Origin: a virus
Taxonomy: Duplodnaviria; Heunggongvirae; Uroviricota; Caudoviricetes
Strand: one strand, 5' to 3'
DNA length: 14,548 bases
IMG/VR virus record: IMGVR_UViG_2529293142_000010
Shown here: piece after piece, positions 1-12,444 of the stretch
How positions within the stretch are numbered: the first letter of the stretch is position 1
How the letters are laid out: every line of letters begins with the position of its first letter
Notes under the pieces: model-generated
Database searches by the model: none
Told to the model about the DNA's origin: nothing
Seen by the model: only the letters and a program-made list of their open reading frames with translations
Made by a program: the position numbers and the translations under genes

Positions 1-209
1 TCTGTCTTGGAAAGAAAAATTACGTGTTCTTCGGTAGCGATCACGGCGGCGAGCGTGGTGCACTGCTGTACGGGCTGATCGGCACCTGCCGTCTGAACGG
101 TATCGATCCGGAAGCGTATCTGCGCCATATTCTGAGCGTACTGCCGGAATGGCCCTCCAACCGTGTTGACGAACTCCTGCCATGGAACGTAGTTCTCACC
201 AATAAATAA
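1..209 (+). CDS. IS66-family transposase, C-terminal fragment (5' end lies outside the window)
   Basis: Frame is open from the window edge to TAA at 207-209. The translation ...KKNYVFFGSDHGGERGALLYGLIGTCRLNGIDPEAYLRHILSVLPEWPSNRVDELLPWNV matches the conserved C-terminal motif of IS66-family transposases as I remember it. Confidence 0.8.
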   Translation, partial: CLGKKNYVFFGSDHGGERGALLYGLIGTCRLNGIDPEAYLRHILSVLPEWPSNRVDELLPWNVVLTNK

Positions 210-238
210 GCGTCAATACGGTGCTCCGTTGACGCTTA
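207..238. repeat. Perfect 10-bp inverted repeat (TAAGCGTCAA / TTGACGCTTA) with a 12-nt spacer at the IS terminus
   Basis: Read directly from the sequence: 207-216 and 229-238 are exact reverse complements. The left arm overlaps the transposase stop codon. Confidence 0.7.
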
Positions 239-239
239 C

Positions 240-335
240 AGGCAAGGCGACGCGGATCTGGTTCTTTGTTGTTTCCCGCTCGGACTTGAATGTTTCGGCA
301 AGGTCACCGCTACGAGTCTGGTCTGATATGGCCAT
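240..335 (-). pseudogene. 5' remnant of a gene interrupted by the IS66-family element (first 32 codons MAISDQTRSGDLAETFKSERETTKNQIRVALP)
   Basis: ATG at 335-333 is preceded by AGGAG (rc of 344-348) with an 8-nt spacer. The frame runs into the IS-derived sequence and stops at 215-213 after 8 further codons. Confidence 0.45.
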
Positions 336-350
336 TTGATAAACTCCTGA

Positions 351-376
351 AAACAAAAACCCGCCAAGTGGCGGGT
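351..376 (-). terminator. Rho-independent terminator closing the minus-strand cassette
   Basis: GC-rich hairpin CCCGCC-AAGT-GGCGGG at 360-375, followed on the minus strand by TTTTTGTTT (rc of 351-359). It lies about 20 nt downstream of the stop of the small ORF at 397 and is asymmetric, with no T-run on the plus-strand side. Confidence 0.75.
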
Positions 377-396
377 CTACAGGAACAACTCTAAGT

Positions 397-567
397 TTAT
401 TTTTTCTGTTTAAAATTGTCCAACTCAGGTTCTTTAACGCTTTCTGTCATGTAATCCAATCCATCAAAAGGTACTTCAAGCATTATACTGCTTTCATAAT
501 CAGCCATGGATTGCTCTGCTTGCGTTGGCTTACTTTGCTGTGAGTTGTCATTATTTGATGTTGTCAT
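397..567 (-). CDS. Small acidic hypothetical protein, 56 aa (MTTSNNDNSQQSKPTQAEQSMADYESSIMLEVPFDGLDYMTESVKEPELDNFKQKK); below the ORF-track length cutoff
   Basis: ATG at 567-565 lies 3 nt after the stop of the upstream membrane-protein gene (571-573); stop TAA at 399-397, just before the terminator. Same strand and same AT-rich composition as its neighbour. Hand translation gives 11 D/E, 5 K and no R. Confidence 0.5.
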   Translation of the reverse strand: MTTSNNDNSQQSKPTQAEQSMADYESSIMLEVPFDGLDYMTESVKEPELDNFKQKK

Positions 568-570
568 CAA

Positions 571-1125
571 CTATGCCTTATTTATCAAAAGAAAAGTAAC
601 CGATAATATGAAAAAACCGAAAGATAACGCAATTCCTTCAAAAAGATAACGAGCATAAACTGCCTTTTCTTTATGAAGACTTTCGATCAATTCAACAGCT
701 TTACCATACTGAAACATATGGTATCTAAGCGTTTTAATTTTATCACCGTAAAGTAAAAAATCATGCTCTTCTTTTCGCTTATGAATAGGCATTTTTGGTA
801 TATCTTTCAGTCCCCAAGTACGCCATAGGAAAAAAAAGCACATAACAATACAAACAAAGCATAGATATGCACAAAGTATAGATAATGTTAAAAACCAATT
901 ACTCTTTAGCCCACTTTTGAAATCAACAGTCCCAAATACAGCCAGTAGAGCAGAGGTTTCTACAGCTAAAATAGCAAGAAGGTAGTTAACTTTGTCCTCA
1001 AGACGACGATATGTTGATTTTGCTTCCTCATATCTATCTTTATAATATGACGAAATAAAATCAGCGCCTATAGTCTCAATTGCCTTTTGTTCTTCTGTTG
1101 TATCTATTGGCGAACACTTGCTCAT
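571..1125 (-). CDS. Hypothetical inner-membrane protein, 184 aa, three predicted TM helices with a charged N-terminal region of about 45 aa and a basic loop of about 60 aa
   Basis: ORF track. Hydrophobic stretches are LLAILAVETSALLAVFGTV, FLTLSILCAYLCFVCIVMCFFFLW and GIALSFGFFILSVTFLLI. Very AT-rich, roughly one third G+C by eye against over half in the structural genes. ATG at 1125 lies 7 nt after the stop of the upstream gene. Confidence 0.75.
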   Translation of the reverse strand: MSKCSPIDTTEEQKAIETIGADFISSYYKDRYEEAKSTYRRLEDKVNYLLAILAVETSALLAVFGTVDFKSGLKSNWFLTLSILCAYLCFVCIVMCFFFLWRTWGLKDIPKMPIHKRKEEHDFLLYGDKIKTLRYHMFQYGKAVELIESLHKEKAVYARYLFEGIALSFGFFILSVTFLLINKA

Positions 1126-1132
1126 TTCTTAA

Positions 1133-1480
1133 TCAACCAACAACTTTCTTACACGGGAAAGAGCCAATAATTTTCGGAGCATCCATGCTGTTCTGCAACA
1201 ACTGGACGTTCAGGAAACGCGTTTTAGTGCCCGGTCGATGGATATACTCGAACCCATAATTGTTGCCATCTTTGGCAGGCATCAACTCCATTTTGATCTG
1301 CATGCCTGTACCGTCTTTACCCAACATTTTTACTTTTTGGGATGTTACTGTTTCGCCATTGATTTTAAATAATGAGTCAGGGATCGCATCCATACGAAAG
1401 TTGCCGCATTGCATCGTTATGGTGTTTGCACTTACACCAACAGACACTAACGCCAGCAATGAAAATATCCATCGTTTCAT
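1133..1480 (-). CDS. Hypothetical secreted/periplasmic protein, 115 aa, with an N-terminal signal peptide (MKRWIFSLLALVSVGVSA|NT) and two Cys in the mature part
   Basis: The ORF-track frame 1133..1561 begins at an upstream alternative start; the first ATG with a Shine-Dalgarno (GAGAGGA upstream) is at 1480-1478, and the protein from there opens with a classic positive-hydrophobic-AXA signal peptide. There is no lipobox, so it is not called a lipoprotein. The start is 2 nt after the stop of the frameshifted tail gene. Confidence 0.7.
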   Translation of the reverse strand: MKRWIFSLLALVSVGVSANTITMQCGNFRMDAIPDSLFKINGETVTSQKVKMLGKDGTGMQIKMELMPAKDGNNYGFEYIHRPGTKTRFLNVQLLQNSMDAPKIIGSFPCKKVVG

Positions 1481-1482
1481 TT

Positions 1483-1978
1483 CTATAATCCTCTCTGCAA
1501 AGCAGTGCTGGATGGCATATCCTGCGCACCGCGCGCTTCGCACATCATATCCATGTACCACGCCTGGCCCCTTGTGTCGCCAGTGTACATAATCCCGCGC
1601 ACAATATAAACGCCATCCGTTGCGATGCTGGCAGGCTGCGATGTGGTGCCGCTTAGCGTGATATTTCCATCCGTGTTCTGGTCGGTGATCTGACCACCAG
1701 CCATCGCAATATCGTTGTTCGACAACGCGGTACGATACACTGCAGCCTGATCCAGCTGAATGAGTCCGTTAACCCGGATGTTCGGATTAATAAGCGCGCG
1801 GACGTTTACGCCGTTACCGATAGTCTGCTGCGGCATGCCAATAAGCCCGGTAGCGCTGTTTGAGCACAATCGCTTCATGAACATATTCGTTATTCGCCAC
1901 CATCTGGCGCTGACCATCCACGAATTGCCATGTTGCGCCACATTGCCCGGCTACGTTATCCATTAGGTGCCGCGTCAT
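1483..1978 (-). pseudogene. Phage tail-region gene of about 165 aa carrying an internal +1 frameshift (two overlapping reading frames)
   Basis: An ATG at 1978-1976 overlaps the stop of the upstream 190-aa gene in an ATGA arrangement and opens a frame with good codon usage that stops at 1816-1814 (MTRHLMDNVAGQCGATWQFVDGQRQMVANNEYVHEAIVLKQRYRAYWHAAADYR). The ORF-track frame 1483..1941 has junk-like W/C-rich translation at its 5' end but well-behaved codons from about 1830 down to its stop. Total length 496 nt is not a multiple of 3. Confidence 0.45.
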
Positions 1979-2547
1979 GCCAAAGAGTACCGCCCCCGGG
2001 GGAATACAGTAGCAGGCATTTCAGGCGTCAGGCCTTCGGTCGCGCCTTTGGCTTCGAAGTCTTTCATCAGCGCACGGTTTACATCAGCGACCGTGTAACC
2101 GGCAGCCAGCGTCTGTGAGGTTATACTGGTGGCAAAAGCCAGATCAGTATCTGCTGCCTGAATCAGGACGTAGGAATCAACCGGACTGTCTTTTCCTGTA
2201 ACCGAGTAGCGAATTTCACCGCTGAAAATCAGTCCGTAGTTGCGACCATCACTCTGGCCCACGTCCGCCGCGTCAACTTCCCGCACTGTCCCGACGTCGC
2301 TTGCCGACACCTCCGGCGCGATACCGTCGTAACCCGCAATCAGACGCACTTTCGAAAACTCCTGCCCGGTAATTCGGTTCACAGTATCTGCCGAGAGGTT
2401 ATAAATTTTGATAGTCCCTACCCGGGACGCGCTGCTGATGTTGAACCAGTCGATCGTAAAGGTGACTTTGAAATCACTTAGCTCAATTCCCTGACCGTTC
2501 CCGTCCACAAGCTGCAGCTCGAAATGTCTCATCCAGTTCTGTGACAT
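1975..2547 (-). CDS. Phage tail component, 190 aa (function not recognised)
   Basis: ORF track; ATG start; 2-nt gap after the upstream gene stop; typical codon usage; sits in the post-tape-measure tail gene chain. Confidence 0.7.
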   Translation of the reverse strand: MSQNWMRHFELQLVDGNGQGIELSDFKVTFTIDWFNISSASRVGTIKIYNLSADTVNRITGQEFSKVRLIAGYDGIAPEVSASDVGTVREVDAADVGQSDGRNYGLIFSGEIRYSVTGKDSPVDSYVLIQAADTDLAFATSITSQTLAAGYTVADVNRALMKDFEAKGATEGLTPEMPATVFPRGRYSLA

Positions 2548-2549
2548 GC

Positions 2550-2852
2550 TTACTCCGTTGATACCAGTAAATGGCTGCGACCGCCCAGGTCAGTTTTTGT
2601 GGGGTAATCCTGTGTGTTGTCATCACAGACCACCACCAGCTTAAAACCAAGCCCCATACAGGCGTACTGCGCCAGCAGGTCAGCACCAGTGACGAGAGGA
2701 ATACCGGAGATTACCGGCTCCCCTCTGTCGCTCTGCAGGTCCATAATCCAGTACAGATCGCGCCATATGATGCTAATCCACCAGGTGACACCACCCAGGA
2801 CGATGCTGAACTGCTGGTTGTCCGCTGTCAGCGGAATTTCCTGAATTGTCAT
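2550..2852 (-). CDS. Phage tail component, 100 aa (function not recognised)
   Basis: ORF track; its ATG overlaps the stop of the upstream 41-aa ORF (ATGA). Confidence 0.65.
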   Translation of the reverse strand: MTIQEIPLTADNQQFSIVLGGVTWWISIIWRDLYWIMDLQSDRGEPVISGIPLVTGADLLAQYACMGLGFKLVVVCDDNTQDYPTKTDLGGRSHLLVSTE

Positions 2853-2974
2853 TTGCCGCCCCCCAGTAATGACGCCACGTTACCCGTGATGCTTTTCAGC
2901 AGTGAAGTATCTGGAGGTTTTGTGGTTTTGTTGCCGCTGTTCTGTACCGCCGACGTGCTGGCCCCTTCCTTCAT
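2849..2974 (-). CDS. Small hypothetical protein, 41 aa (MKEGASTSAVQNSGNKTTKPPDTSLLKSITGNVASLLGGGK); not in the ORF track
   Basis: Its ATG (2974-2972) overlaps the TGA of the upstream ORF and its TGA (2851-2849) overlaps the ATG of the downstream ORF, both as ATGA. Codon usage looks ordinary. Confidence 0.4.
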   Translation of the reverse strand: MKEGASTSAVQNSGNKTTKPPDTSLLKSITGNVASLLGGGK

Positions 2975-3270
2975 GTTGGTTTTATCCGCGACGGTAATCT
3001 GCTATGTCCGGGAGATAATGACCTCCCGTCAGGGTGAGGACGGCGGACTAGGACGTTTTCGGTTGTCTTGTCCGTCGTCACTTCCAGCGCCCGGATCAAC
3101 ATGTTGCTGTACAGCCGTTTACCGGTTACCACATCGAAGGGGATACGGCTTTCCTGCAGACCCAGTAGCTCCTGATACGTCTGCTGAGGACTCAGGCCGA
3201 GCAGGCTGGTAGCCGTCAGGTTACTGGCAAAATCCAGCAATGCGCCGCCACCGGCAAAACCAACCTCCAT
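2971..3270 (-). CDS. Phage tail component, about 99 aa
   Basis: ORF track frame 2971..3276 begins at a GTG; the first ATG is at 3270. The 5' two thirds have good codon usage; the last 25 or so codons are rich in rare codons (AGG, AGA, ATA, TTA), so the true 3' end is uncertain. Confidence 0.55.
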   Translation of the reverse strand: MEVGFAGGGALLDFASNLTATSLLGLSPQQTYQELLGLQESRIPFDVVTGKRLYSNMLIRALEVTTDKTTENVLVRRPHPDGRSLSPGHSRLPSRIKPT

Positions 3271-3392
3271 CACCACTTCTGACGGTTTTTATAGGCATGA
3301 TCAGCGACAGCGGCCCCGACCTCTACCGGATGCTCTGTTATTTCAAGCATATCTGTGTGCTTCTCTGAAATAACAACACTGGGAACAATCAT
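3270..3392 (-). CDS. Possible small ORF, 40 aa (MIVPSVVISEKHTDMLEITEHPVEVGAAVADHAYKNRQKW) filling the gap after the tape measure gene
   Basis: ATG at 3392-3390; its TGA overlaps the ATG of the next gene by one base (TGATG). The Shine-Dalgarno is weak (AGGA immediately adjacent to the ATG). It contains the 10-bp inverted repeat at 3336-3375. Confidence 0.25.
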   Translation of the reverse strand: MIVPSVVISEKHTDMLEITEHPVEVGAAVADHAYKNRQKW

Positions 3393-3439
3393 TCCTATTT
3401 TTCTGCTCTGCTGATGAAAAAGTGTAGAGAGAATATCCA

Positions 3440-5428
3440 CTAACCCACCCTCACCTGATTACTTCGCATGACCTGAGCATTTGCAGACTGTTGCCGACGT
3501 GCAACCTCATTACCGACAGCGTGCGGATCTCCGCCACCGTAAATGTGGTAGGTATTTTGCTGGTTAACCTCTGTCACTTTGCCACTAATTCCCGCCACGG
3601 CAGCCTTATTAATCAGCTCTCGAGAATAGATATTTCTTCCATTCTCATGCTGGATAATGCTGCTCATCAATGCTGACATGGTTTGCGGATCGCTCATATT
3701 CAGGGCAGCCCGGGGATCCACTCCCAGTCGTTGCGATACAGCCCTGATATACGCGGTTGTGTTGTTATTATCAGACGCAGGTGCCCAGGTAGAGATAATT
3801 TTCTCCACACTGTTTATTCCCCGTCCGGCGTACAGCATTAACTGACGAGCAAGAGCCCGTAATCCATCAAAAGCGGTTTCAAATCTGGCAAATCGCCCGC
3901 CCGGGCGTTCAAGAGAAGCCCCAGCCTGACCAGCAAAATTAAGATTTCCCGGATTGTTATTCCGTTCTCCTCGTTTCGTAGCCTGTGCATGTTGTTCCGG
4001 CTCATCATCACCAAACCAGCCGCGTACCGTCCGGCCCACACTGCGGGGATCAAATCCCCAGTGCTCTTTAATCCAGTCGGCAGTACTGTTAGCGCTGTCT
4101 GTAACCATCGGCATCGCTGACGGATTTTCGCTGCCCTGATTAAGTATCTGTTTGCCGATGCTGACGGCATCAGCCCAGCGGCCATCTTTGATAGCGTTGA
4201 GCAGGTCGGCGATCATGTTCAGCATTTTGCTGAATTCGCCCATCTGGTCGATGAAGTTGCTGAAATCCCACTTCAGGGACCATGATTTGGGGTCAATATT
4301 GAGCAGTTTCGCCAGCGCTTTCACCAGGTCGTTAACGGTCGTTTCAAGGTCACGAACCATCTTCAGCGCGGCATCAACCTCCGGTTTCCACTTGCCCCAG
4401 TCAATCAGGCTGTCGCCGCCTTCCTTCCAGGTCTGATAGTCCTCCCACAGGAGGGCAATCCCCGCCGCCAGCGCGGTAATGAGGCCAATCGGCGACATCC
4501 AGAACGTACTGTTCAGAATGCGCAGCGCAATCGTCAGTGCGCCAAACAGCGAGATCAACTCCCGCGTTTGCTTATCCAGCGATTGCCACCAGGTGATGAG
4601 GCCTGATGTCCCCTCAATCAGTCTGAAGAACAACCGCCCGATAATATCCCCGAGCGCCAGAATGCCTTTTATGGCTTTCGTCAGGGTCTGCTCGATACGC
4701 GGGAAGTTGTCCAGGATATGGCGGCGCAGAGTGTCCAGCGAACCCGCAAGCCCACCCGCAAGATTAGAGCCGATTTTGTCACGGGCCATGCCTGCCATCG
4801 CGCCAAACTCACGCAGGGAGGTCATAAATTTGTTGGAGCTTCTGGCCGCCTCGTCAGCATTGAAGCCGATAGCTTTCGCCATTGCGCTGTACTGCCCGGA
4901 GAAGCCACCCACACCGCGACGCACAGCCATCAGGGTATTTTCGTCAATGCCCAGCATCTGCGCATACTGGTTAGCACGGTAATACGGCATGTCGCTGAGC
5001 TTCTGGCCTACCCCTGTAAAAATAGCGGCCATGTCACGCATGTTACCGCTGGCATCCCGTGTCTGTACCCCCAGACGATTCAGAAATCCCTCCGCCCCGG
5101 GATTATTACGAATAAACCGGGAGAGGTTTTCCAGAGAAGATCGCGCAGCGTCCACGCTGCCGCCAACCTGCGAAACCGCATAGCCAATAGACTGAATTCC
5201 CTGGACTGTCGCTCCGGTGCGCTGTGACGCCCAGTAAAGATTATCCAGACCGGAGGCGATCTTAGCCGTGAAGGCCACCACGGACAGCGCAGTTCCTTCG
5301 ACGGCCAGCCCCATTTTGATGACATTTGCAGTTGTACCGGCGAGGACAGAACCGAATTTTTTCGCTCCTGCATCATCCACACTGAAGCCAAGCGAGACGA
5401 GGAAATCTTTAATAGTTTCAGCGTTCAT
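3440..5428 (-). CDS. Tail tape measure protein, about 662 aa
   Basis: Large ORF directly downstream of the frameshifted chaperone; Ala/Gly-rich helical N-terminal part; internal hydrophobic segments (LISLFGALTIALRILNSTFWMSPIGLITALAAGIALLW). The ORF-track start at 5449 is a TTG; the first ATG is at 5428, preceded by GGAGAGAGG. Confidence 0.85.
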   Translation of the reverse strand: MNAETIKDFLVSLGFSVDDAGAKKFGSVLAGTTANVIKMGLAVEGTALSVVAFTAKIASGLDNLYWASQRTGATVQGIQSIGYAVSQVGGSVDAARSSLENLSRFIRNNPGAEGFLNRLGVQTRDASGNMRDMAAIFTGVGQKLSDMPYYRANQYAQMLGIDENTLMAVRRGVGGFSGQYSAMAKAIGFNADEAARSSNKFMTSLREFGAMAGMARDKIGSNLAGGLAGSLDTLRRHILDNFPRIEQTLTKAIKGILALGDIIGRLFFRLIEGTSGLITWWQSLDKQTRELISLFGALTIALRILNSTFWMSPIGLITALAAGIALLWEDYQTWKEGGDSLIDWGKWKPEVDAALKMVRDLETTVNDLVKALAKLLNIDPKSWSLKWDFSNFIDQMGEFSKMLNMIADLLNAIKDGRWADAVSIGKQILNQGSENPSAMPMVTDSANSTADWIKEHWGFDPRSVGRTVRGWFGDDEPEQHAQATKRGERNNNPGNLNFAGQAGASLERPGGRFARFETAFDGLRALARQLMLYAGRGINSVEKIISTWAPASDNNNTTAYIRAVSQRLGVDPRAALNMSDPQTMSALMSSIIQHENGRNIYSRELINKAAVAGISGKVTEVNQQNTYHIYGGGDPHAVGNEVARRQQSANAQVMRSNQVRVG

Positions 5429-5657
5429 TATCCTCTCTCCATTTCTCAATGCGCCGCTGGTTATCCGCTTTTACCGCCAGATGGTCATTCAAGAGAGCAA
5501 TGTCATACAAATCGACAGAGCCATCTTTAAGTGCTGTATAGGGAATTAACCCGGCGTCAACCGGATTGAGAAGGTAGGACAGCCCGTCCGGCAGGCTGTT
5601 AAACGTCAGCCCTGTTGCAGGCTCTGCGTCGTGCTGGTAAGGGGTGTAGGCAAAAAA
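5425..5657 (-). other. -1 frame extension of the tail assembly chaperone (GT-like fusion product); slippery heptamer T_TTT_TTG at 5657-5651
   Basis: The chaperone reads ...GGA AAT TTT TTG...; after a -1 slip the frame stays open for about 77 codons across the otherwise non-coding 177 nt between the chaperone stop and the tape measure start, ending at TGA 5427-5425 beside the tape measure ATG. Confidence 0.65.
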
Positions 5658-6058
5658 TTTCCCAGCGAATCGGCGACCACCCGCGCCACCAGATGAAGCA
5701 TGACCAGCAAGTCAATATCATCAAACATCAGTTCGCCATGGGTAAATACCGGCACCCATCCGTCCATATGACGCCGCGATACCACCGCAAGACAGGGATG
5801 AATAATCGCATCGGTGTCATCTTCGGTCAGGGAAGACAGTTCCTCAGCGATACGCGGGAGCATGGTTTCAAACACCGGTTTTAACTGCTCGAATTTCACG
5901 GTGTCGATTTTGCCATCAGCAGGCAAACGGGAGCGAATGCTCCCGAAATCTGACATCATTCCCGCCAGTACCGGCAGAAGTTTGCGGGTCACTTTCAGCT
6001 GGTCAAAAACGCTGAGTTTTGCCGTGCGATATTTCACACCTTTGATTTCGAATTCCAT
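5606..6058 (-). CDS. Tail assembly chaperone (G-like), 150 aa
   Basis: ORF track; located between the tube-like gene and the tape measure gene; followed by a long open -1 frame. Confidence 0.75.
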   Translation of the reverse strand: MEFEIKGVKYRTAKLSVFDQLKVTRKLLPVLAGMMSDFGSIRSRLPADGKIDTVKFEQLKPVFETMLPRIAEELSSLTEDDTDAIIHPCLAVVSRRHMDGWVPVFTHGELMFDDIDLLVMLHLVARVVADSLGNFLPTPLTSTTQSLQQG

Positions 6059-11224: not shown

Positions 11225-11482
11225 TTACCCTTTACGGTTTGCCCAGAATTCGGCGTTTTGTTTGTTCAGGGAAGCGATACTGGTCATGCCCATGTTTGGG
11301 CGCTGTGCATCGCCGGTGGTGGCGCGGGTGTTTCGCCCTTTGGCAATCTCAGACACGGCATTAAACGCCATGTCGACCGATTGTTTCGGTAATTTGCGGA
11401 TATCCGCATCACCGACTATCTGGCGAACCAGCGTTTTGTCAGCAGAAGCCAGAACCTCACGTTTGAACGCGGTCGGTTTCAT
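11225..11482 (-). CDS. 85-aa ORF that is probably the C-terminal part of the upstream scaffold/protease-like gene rather than an independent gene
   Basis: ORF track. Its frame stays open, with no start codon, for a further 90 codons upstream to 11752, encoding an acidic low-complexity stretch ([49 protein letters not shown]...) and overlapping the 3' end of the 11650..12444 ORF. Confidence 0.5.
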   Translation of the reverse strand: MKPTAFKREVLASADKTLVRQIVGDADIRKLPKQSVDMAFNAVSEIAKGRNTRATTGDAQRPNMGMTSIASLNKQNAEFWANRKG

Positions 11483-11649
11483 CTTACGGCTCAGATCAAT
11501 ACCCGGAACAATAACTTCGGCACGCCAGGCTGAGTCACCAGTAATCGTGGTTTCCTCTTCATCGTCCTCGCCGTCACCGGTCGGATTATCGTCAGGCTTA
11601 TTATCGTTATCGCCCGTGGCATTTCCTTCCAGCTTAGCCAGCAGGGCTT

Positions 11650-12444
11650 TCAGTAATGTTTTGAGGTCATCATCACTGTCGCCGGTTGGGCCTCCCCCAT
11701 CTCTGGTGCTTTGTCCGGTAGTGGTTGCTGCGGGGACAGGTTGATATTGAGATTAACGCCCTGCGGCAAATCCCCCTCATCTCCTGTAACCGATGCGGGA
11801 GCCGACTCCACCAGTTCGTTCATGGTGTCGGCATCTCCTGTCTTGATGGCCGCACGCATGCGGTTCCACCAGTTTTTCTTTTGATTTGCCATTGTGTCTC
11901 TGTCTCCAATTGCACAACGATTTCCGGCTCTGCCTTTAGGGACAAGAGCCACATGGTTTCCGGTAATATCGACCTGCTCAGCTTTACCTGGCTCGGTCTG
12001 CTCGTACTCCGCGTCATAGCCGCACGACACTTCGCGCAGGCCATCTTCGATAAGCTGAATGGCGTTTTCGTCTTTGACGATAAGGTCAGCCAGCATCAAA
12101 TCAGACTGCTCACCCGTCCCGCGCCGGACATTCTGGAGGTGCCCGACAGCAAGCTCTTTCCAGTTCTCGGGATTTACCAGCCGCACATTCCCGTTTTCAT
12201 CTTCAGGATGCAGAATCGTGATGCTCATCCCTTCGAATGAGGCAAGCGTGGCCGGATGGAATACCTGCTCAGGAGAACGCGTGACGACTATTTCACCGAA
12301 CTTATCGGGTTTCAGTTTTGGCAGGTCATCAGCACCATAGAGCTGCTTACCTGTTCGTCCTATCGGCACGTCTTTGCACAGCAACGAGCCGTCAGCCAGC
12401 TGATAGCGGGTTTCCCCCAGCCGGGTATTGAAAAAATATTTCAT
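11650..12444 (-). CDS. Scaffold/protease-like head protein, 264 aa as written (DUF2213-like); probably truncated by a frameshift
   Basis: ORF track; ATG start with AGGT upstream; position after the MuF-like gene. A run of five C on the plus strand at 11694-11698 (GGGGG on the coding strand) is where a 1-nt length change would join this frame to the 85-aa ORF frame, giving about 400 aa. Confidence 0.7.

Follow-up and report, generated by a model that had tools for sequence, protein, structure and literature searches.

The window analysed here is the whole 14,548-nt stretch of the viral record IMGVR_UViG_2529293142_000010. On its minus strand, positions 2547 to 1483 hold one baseplate hub gene of exactly 1065 nt, the same length as the intact gene, which encodes 354 aa after repair of two one-base indels. 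The intact full-length frame present in relatives is absent from the window, where three ORF fragments were found. The first piece (1975-2547, minus strand, 190 aa) starts at the true start codon of the hub gene, ATG 2547, and contains native residues 1-186, then YSLA out of frame and a TGA at 1975-1977. The second piece (1814-1978, minus strand, 54 aa) comprises native Met191-Leu229, followed by 15 out-of-frame residues and a stop at 1814-1816. The third piece (1483-1860, minus strand) covers native Asn230-Leu354 in the same frame as the first, and in the ORF list the ORFs 1975-2547 and 1483-1941 likewise share a frame.

The two indels were located by base-by-base alignment to E. coli O55:H7 CB9615. 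Over 1201 aligned nt the window differed from CB9615 at five places, namely three substitutions, the loss of one G and the gain of one A. The G was lost from a G-run at 1990-1991 (minus strand), changing GGGGGCGGG to GGGGGCGG; all relatives have GGG and the window has GG, and aligners put the gap at 1992. The A was gained in an A-run at 1859-1861 (minus strand), changing CTCAAC to CTCAAAC; all relatives have AA and the window has AAA, which restores the original frame. The two indels are of opposite sign, compensate each other and lie 131 nt apart, with a synonymous T-to-C substitution private to the record between them (1967, minus strand).

The initial annotation had placed the start of a split gene at ATG 1978, and much of what it saw in the letters was borne out: the ORF from ATG 1978 to the stop at 1814-1816 exists and encodes 54 aa, no stop interrupts the +1 frame between 1941 (where it opens in the ORF list) and 1483, and the comparison with relatives confirmed that the two frames together specify an unbroken stretch of homologous protein. 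The boundaries, however, had to be redrawn. ATG 1978 is the internal Met191 of the 354-aa hub, and the break supposed to lie near 1830 is the one-base insertion in the A-run. The 'ATGA overlap' is present in the sequence but is no gene junction; because of the lost G the upstream 190-aa ORF runs into TGA 1975-1977, and this creates the overlap. The frame break is thus real in the record, although only one of two compensating frameshifts had been recognised, and the product is not about 165 aa but 354 aa, both in intact relatives and in the repaired window gene. Nor is this the last tail gene, since three small ORFs and a 32-codon spike stump come after it.

In CB9615 a single 1065-nt CDS (WP_000081725.1, 354 aa) spans all three window ORFs, and the equivalent gene of Salmonella phage SEN34 encodes 355 aa and is annotated as 'baseplate hub'. 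The hub region matched approximately 300 complete E. coli genomes with up to 99.6% identity, as well as temperate myoviruses (Escherichia phages vB_EcoM-689R2 and related phages, Yersinia phage YP3, and SEN34 with 80%). One uninterrupted hub ORF was found in CB9615, SEN34, YP3, the approximately 300 E. coli genomes, 10 metagenome contigs and the same-lineage assemblies; homologues have one gene here and not two with the boundaries seen in the window. The repaired hub translation was identical to the proteins of two related loci (L010 and L011 in our numbering of loci). It matched the PHROG 196 baseplate hub profile over residues 1-352 (E 4.2e-89) and the hub gp19 of cyanophage Pam3 (7yfz_t, PDB 7yfz) over residues 99-295 (E 2.3e-12), and reached 22.7 bits with Pfam PF22759 (E217_GP41), which is under the curated cut-off of 27. 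In CB9615, SEN34 and loci L007-L018 the hub follows the tape measure, Dit-like and plug genes and precedes the spike, the full order being tape measure, Dit-like, Pam3_gp18-type plug, hub, two to three small ORFs, spike, sheath initiator, baseplate J, wedge and fibre.

Judged by these matches, the gene is an ordinary member of the baseplate hub family of SEN34-like prophages, distantly related to the Pam3 gp19 and E217 gp41 hubs, and it belongs to a SEN34/Brunovirus-like myovirus prophage remnant in E. coli. The SEN34-like (Brunovirus) hubs, such as WP_000081725.1 and SEN34_19, are closest, with 99.6% nucleotide identity of the window to CB9615 and 80% to SEN34, and they share the synteny of the window (tape measure, Dit-like, Pam3_gp18-type plug, hub, small ORFs, spike). 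The window copy differs from them in its two compensating one-base indels and in lying in an IS66-truncated prophage. As for the hubs of Pam3 (gp19) and Pseudomonas phage E217 (gp41), the neighbours in the window match Pfam Pam3_gp18, Dit_like and the E217-type sheath and tube; Pam3 gp19 has 229 aa compared to 354 aa for the E. coli hub.

Neither hub indel was found in complete E. coli genomes. The G-run deletion occurred in 0 of 189 of them, a 56-mer across the run showing a 1-nt gap in all 189 matches, and the A-run insertion in 0 of 129, with a 1-nt gap for a 61-mer in all 129 matches. The 39-mer carrying the A insertion had no match in metagenome contigs, compared to 10 for the intact 38-mer, and a scan of contigs from one genome per species yielded neither the frameshifted nor the intact allele, so that it is uninformative on the question. 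Fragment proteins of 54, 152 and 101 aa were absent from a collection of 15 billion proteins, and no complete RefSeq E. coli genome matched the window at 100%.

The hub was intact (354 aa) in L009, L010 (13 samples), L011 and L016, and also in L017-L018; in L009, L010 and L011 the Dit-like ORF (195 aa) was intact as well. In L016 a single contig leads from an intact hub of 354 aa to the small ORFs that follow it in the window as well. Loci L006 and L007 are identical to window positions 1-1838 except for T6 versus T5 at 360, and the plug protein of the window has two amino-acid variants in common with L015 (AFDY02000034.1), L016 (NEOK01000069.1) and L017/L018 (Logan SRR057628_203). The search for the same hub lesion in independent assemblies of the lineage, as expected of a lineage-level pseudogene, gave none in L009-L011 and L016-L018. 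On these comparisons both hub indels are shown to be private to this record.

An exact copy of the 190-aa fragment was found in two Logan contigs, and we first read this as independent support for the G-run deletion. The reading was rejected. One of the two contigs, L004, belongs to another lineage (97.4% identity), has its own scattered C/G-run indels and is without the 1861 insertion, and the split gene calls of the other, L005, look as noisy as those of L004. The deletion in L004 and L005 therefore points to an error-prone site and not to shared ancestry. The same G-run and A6-run lesions arise independently in other lineages, in contigs whose other genes are visibly shredded, and such recurrence in noisy assemblies marks the two runs as error-prone sites.

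We also compared the rest of the record with its nearest sister contig, SRR057628_203 (12,999 nt, window 14530-1532), which is possibly not a data set independent of the source record. The two are identical except at 11 positions, all with the intact allele in the sister contig, and 10 of these positions fall within 1861-4345. Six are one-base indels, at 11227 (A6 to A5), 3291 (A6 to A5), 3049 (+A), 3028 (+C), 1990-1991 (G3 to G2) and 1859-1861 (A2 to A3), and five are substitutions, at 4345, 3875, 3004, 2854 and 1967, four of them transitions. At the end of the DUF2213 gene, the A6-to-A5 change at 11227 is found in neither L018 nor CB9615, and an intergenic T6-to-T5 change at 360 is private against 11 loci. 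These two contractions lie outside the main patch and suggest a general homopolymer-length problem in the record. In total 12 differences, seven indels and five substitutions, are private to the record. A first count against L007 and L010 had given 10 private substitutions in the patch; six were genuine sub-lineage variants common to L015, L016 and L017, and five are private.

The private differences are strongly clustered and rich in indels. The patch at 1861-4345 makes up 17% of the prophage length and contains 10 of the 12 differences (five indels and five substitutions; binomial P = 1.2e-6), and five of the seven indels lie within 1861-3291 (P = 2e-4). The ratio of indels to substitutions was 7:5 for private differences and 1:161 for natural variation between the window and CB9615 (Fisher P = 7e-9), a contrast that is inflated by selection against indels in functional copies. 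Five of the seven private indels alter the length of a homopolymer. Three shorten a 6-nt run to 5, and 17 runs of at least 6 nt remain in the window. The marks of an artefact, namely differences that are private to one record, indel-rich, homopolymer-linked and clustered, are thus all found in this set of 12.

The same patch breaks the neighbouring Dit-like baseplate gene (2849-3440, minus strand), which encodes 195 aa in relatives and is intact in L007-L010 and L014-L018. In the window an A is lost at 3291 (A6 to A5), an A is gained at 3049 and a C at 3028, and a substitution is found at 3004. The three private indels split the gene into ORFs of 56, 101 and 41 aa, and the private T-to-A substitution at 2854 destroys its stop codon.

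The prophage itself is truncated by an insertion sequence. Positions 1-238 of the window are the right end of an IS66-family element, with the TnpC C-terminus at 24-209 and a terminal inverted repeat ending in ...GACGCTTAC at 238. Prophage homology begins at 239, within the spike gene, of which 32 codons are left, and the remaining baseplate and fibre module (rest of the spike, wedge and fibre genes) is absent and replaced by the IS66-family end. With its spike, wedge and fibre genes removed by IS66, this copy of the prophage is non-functional whether or not its hub gene is intact, and the relaxed selection under which a lineage-level pseudogene could persist is present. The IS66/spike junction (213-335) makes a 40-aa chimeric ORF, which was found on 13 contigs from NCBI and Logan (8 places among the matches listed). 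None of the 5,426 complete E. coli genomes has the junction, which is present on draft and Logan contigs and so is a useful lineage marker.

Between hub and spike, at 397-1480 (minus strand), lie three small ORFs without family matches: one of 115 aa whose N-terminus resembles a signal peptide, one of 184 aa for which membrane segments are predicted, and one of 57 aa. Unrelated ORFs take their place in SEN34 and in the paralogous prophage, so from the sequences compared this region looks like a variable moron-like slot. Further upstream, a DUF2213 / Pa193_gp24-like head gene (11227-12444, minus strand) has lost a C at about 11696, changing GGGCGGAGG to GGGGGAGG and leaving a truncated ORF of 264 aa. 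This lesion looks like a genuine mutation of the lineage because, unlike the hub lesions, it is common to SRR057628_203 (L018).

A sister assembly, GCA_000225185.3, was found to contain two related prophages, one intact (L015), with a 353-aa hub and the full baseplate, and one IS66-truncated (L012, AFDY02000083.1). From the head genes onwards the two do not differ until they are inside the last 50 nt of the hub; at about window position 1530 they diverge, and past it both the hub C-termini and the small ORFs are different. Breaks in draft contigs fall at 1530-1841. As the two copies share one sequence on the upstream side of about 1530, the affected stretch is a multi-kilobase repeat in GCA_000225185.3. 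Genomic repeats are a typical place of poor consensus or unpolished sequence.

Taken together, the two hub indels and the three indels of the Dit-like gene are probably sequencing or assembly errors. We favour this reading because the differences are private, indel-rich, clustered and largely homopolymer-linked, and lie in a region that is repeated in the sister assembly. The hub indels would be part of a 2.5-kb patch of low-fidelity consensus (1861-4345), and this patch would fall in the stretch that the sister assembly has in duplicate, its other prophage of this family being intact and without a difference upstream of about 1530. Some features count against an error: the insertions at 3049 (+A) and 3028 (+C) and the five substitutions are not classic homopolymer errors, and a dead prophage copy would tolerate real frameshifts. 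Two copies, seen directly in the sister assembly, may also be present in the window's own strain, in which case collapsed short-read contigs (L015, L017/L018) might show the intact copy alone and hide true lesions of the truncated copy. Two more specific sources of the changes were considered and set aside. Nanopore errors at methylation motifs were dismissed, since on inspection no Dcm or Dam context was common to the private substitutions. A mismatch-repair-deficient mutator lineage fits the transitions and the homopolymer indels but not the 2.5-kb clustering or the two non-homopolymer insertions.

The main alternative, which we consider doubtful, is that the record is correct and that the hub and Dit-like genes carry genuine indels and substitutions, acquired in this strain alone by pseudogenisation after the IS66 truncation, possibly by slippage, a gene-conversion patch or a patch of error-prone repair. 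The element is defective, with the IS66 end at 238 cutting the spike after 32 codons, and selection on it is relaxed; the DUF2213 frameshift at 11696 common to the sister contig tells that real frameshifts do occur in this prophage, transitions make up four of the five private substitutions, and alleles of the truncated copy could go unseen in collapsed two-copy assemblies. Against this alternative, in L016 and L009-L011 single contigs run from an intact hub into downstream genes unique to the truncated copy, L009-L011 even reaching the truncated spike stump; hub and Dit-like gene are intact in these otherwise identical loci. The collapsed SRR057628 contig has the intact allele at all 11 sites as well. 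The distribution of the changes also argues against decay: 10 of 12 differences fall in 17% of the length, and the other 10 kb of the sister comparison holds one A6-to-A5 change only. Such clustering does not look like neutral decay, and the 7:5 ratio of indels to substitutions is far from natural variation at the locus. No conversion donor for the private patch was found in 5,426 complete genomes, and the absence of the 54-, 152- and 101-aa fragments among 15 billion proteins points the same way. In a narrower form, the 10 changes in 1861-4345 would be real and would have arisen in a dead prophage copy, by a localised mutation shower or as a conversion tract donated by an unsampled, already decayed paralogue. 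This we regard as improbable; if true, the compensating hub frameshifts would be one of its footprints.

The initial annotation had left decay, an assembly error and recoding side by side. Error is now the best supported of them, and decay holds for the element as a whole, with its IS66 truncation and shared DUF2213 frameshift, while for the hub gene it would be the less likely reading. Recoding, in which ribosomes would shift to make the full-length hub from the split frames, was refuted, and we give it next to no credence. The two frames do jointly encode a conserved protein, and recoding is used in tail modules elsewhere. Here it would need two separate shifts of opposite sign, and neither break is conserved in the approximately 300 genomes, SEN34, YP3, the 10 metagenome contigs or the same-lineage assemblies. 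Neither GGGGGCGG nor CTCAAAC is an X XXY YYZ heptamer in the reading frame, and in the zero frame the 30 nt that follow the first lesion contain TGA, TAA and TAG. The candidate was rejected on these grounds: no homologue with either break, the need for two shifts, and no in-frame slippery heptamer.

Tail modules do have a well-known example of genuine recoding, the programmed -1 frameshift in the lambda G/GT tail assembly chaperone genes. The break in the hub gene has no relation to that frameshift, being unconserved, without a slippery heptamer and in need of two shifts; a candidate site of the lambda type is instead found in the chaperone gene of the window, at about 5652-5658. In the region of about 5420-5660 (minus strand), with a T6 run at 5652-5657, GGGAAATTTTTTG lies near the end of the tail assembly chaperone gene (5606-6058), and the -1 frame after it is open through the DUF6889 ORF to the start of the tape measure, an arrangement as in lambda G/GT. 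Judged from this arrangement, GGGAAATTTTTTG is a plausible candidate for the place where genuine recoding happens in this tail module.

In annotation, a single frameshifted baseplate hub gene should replace the three ORFs at 1483-2547, which are neither separate genes nor a recoding candidate, and the Dit-like gene needs the same re-annotation. The case also shows that a frameshift can produce an apparent 'ATGA overlap'. Whether an artefact or a private pseudogenisation of a trivial kind, the frame break indicates nothing new. Should the lesions be real, no biological consequence would be expected from them, because the prophage had already been inactivated by IS66.
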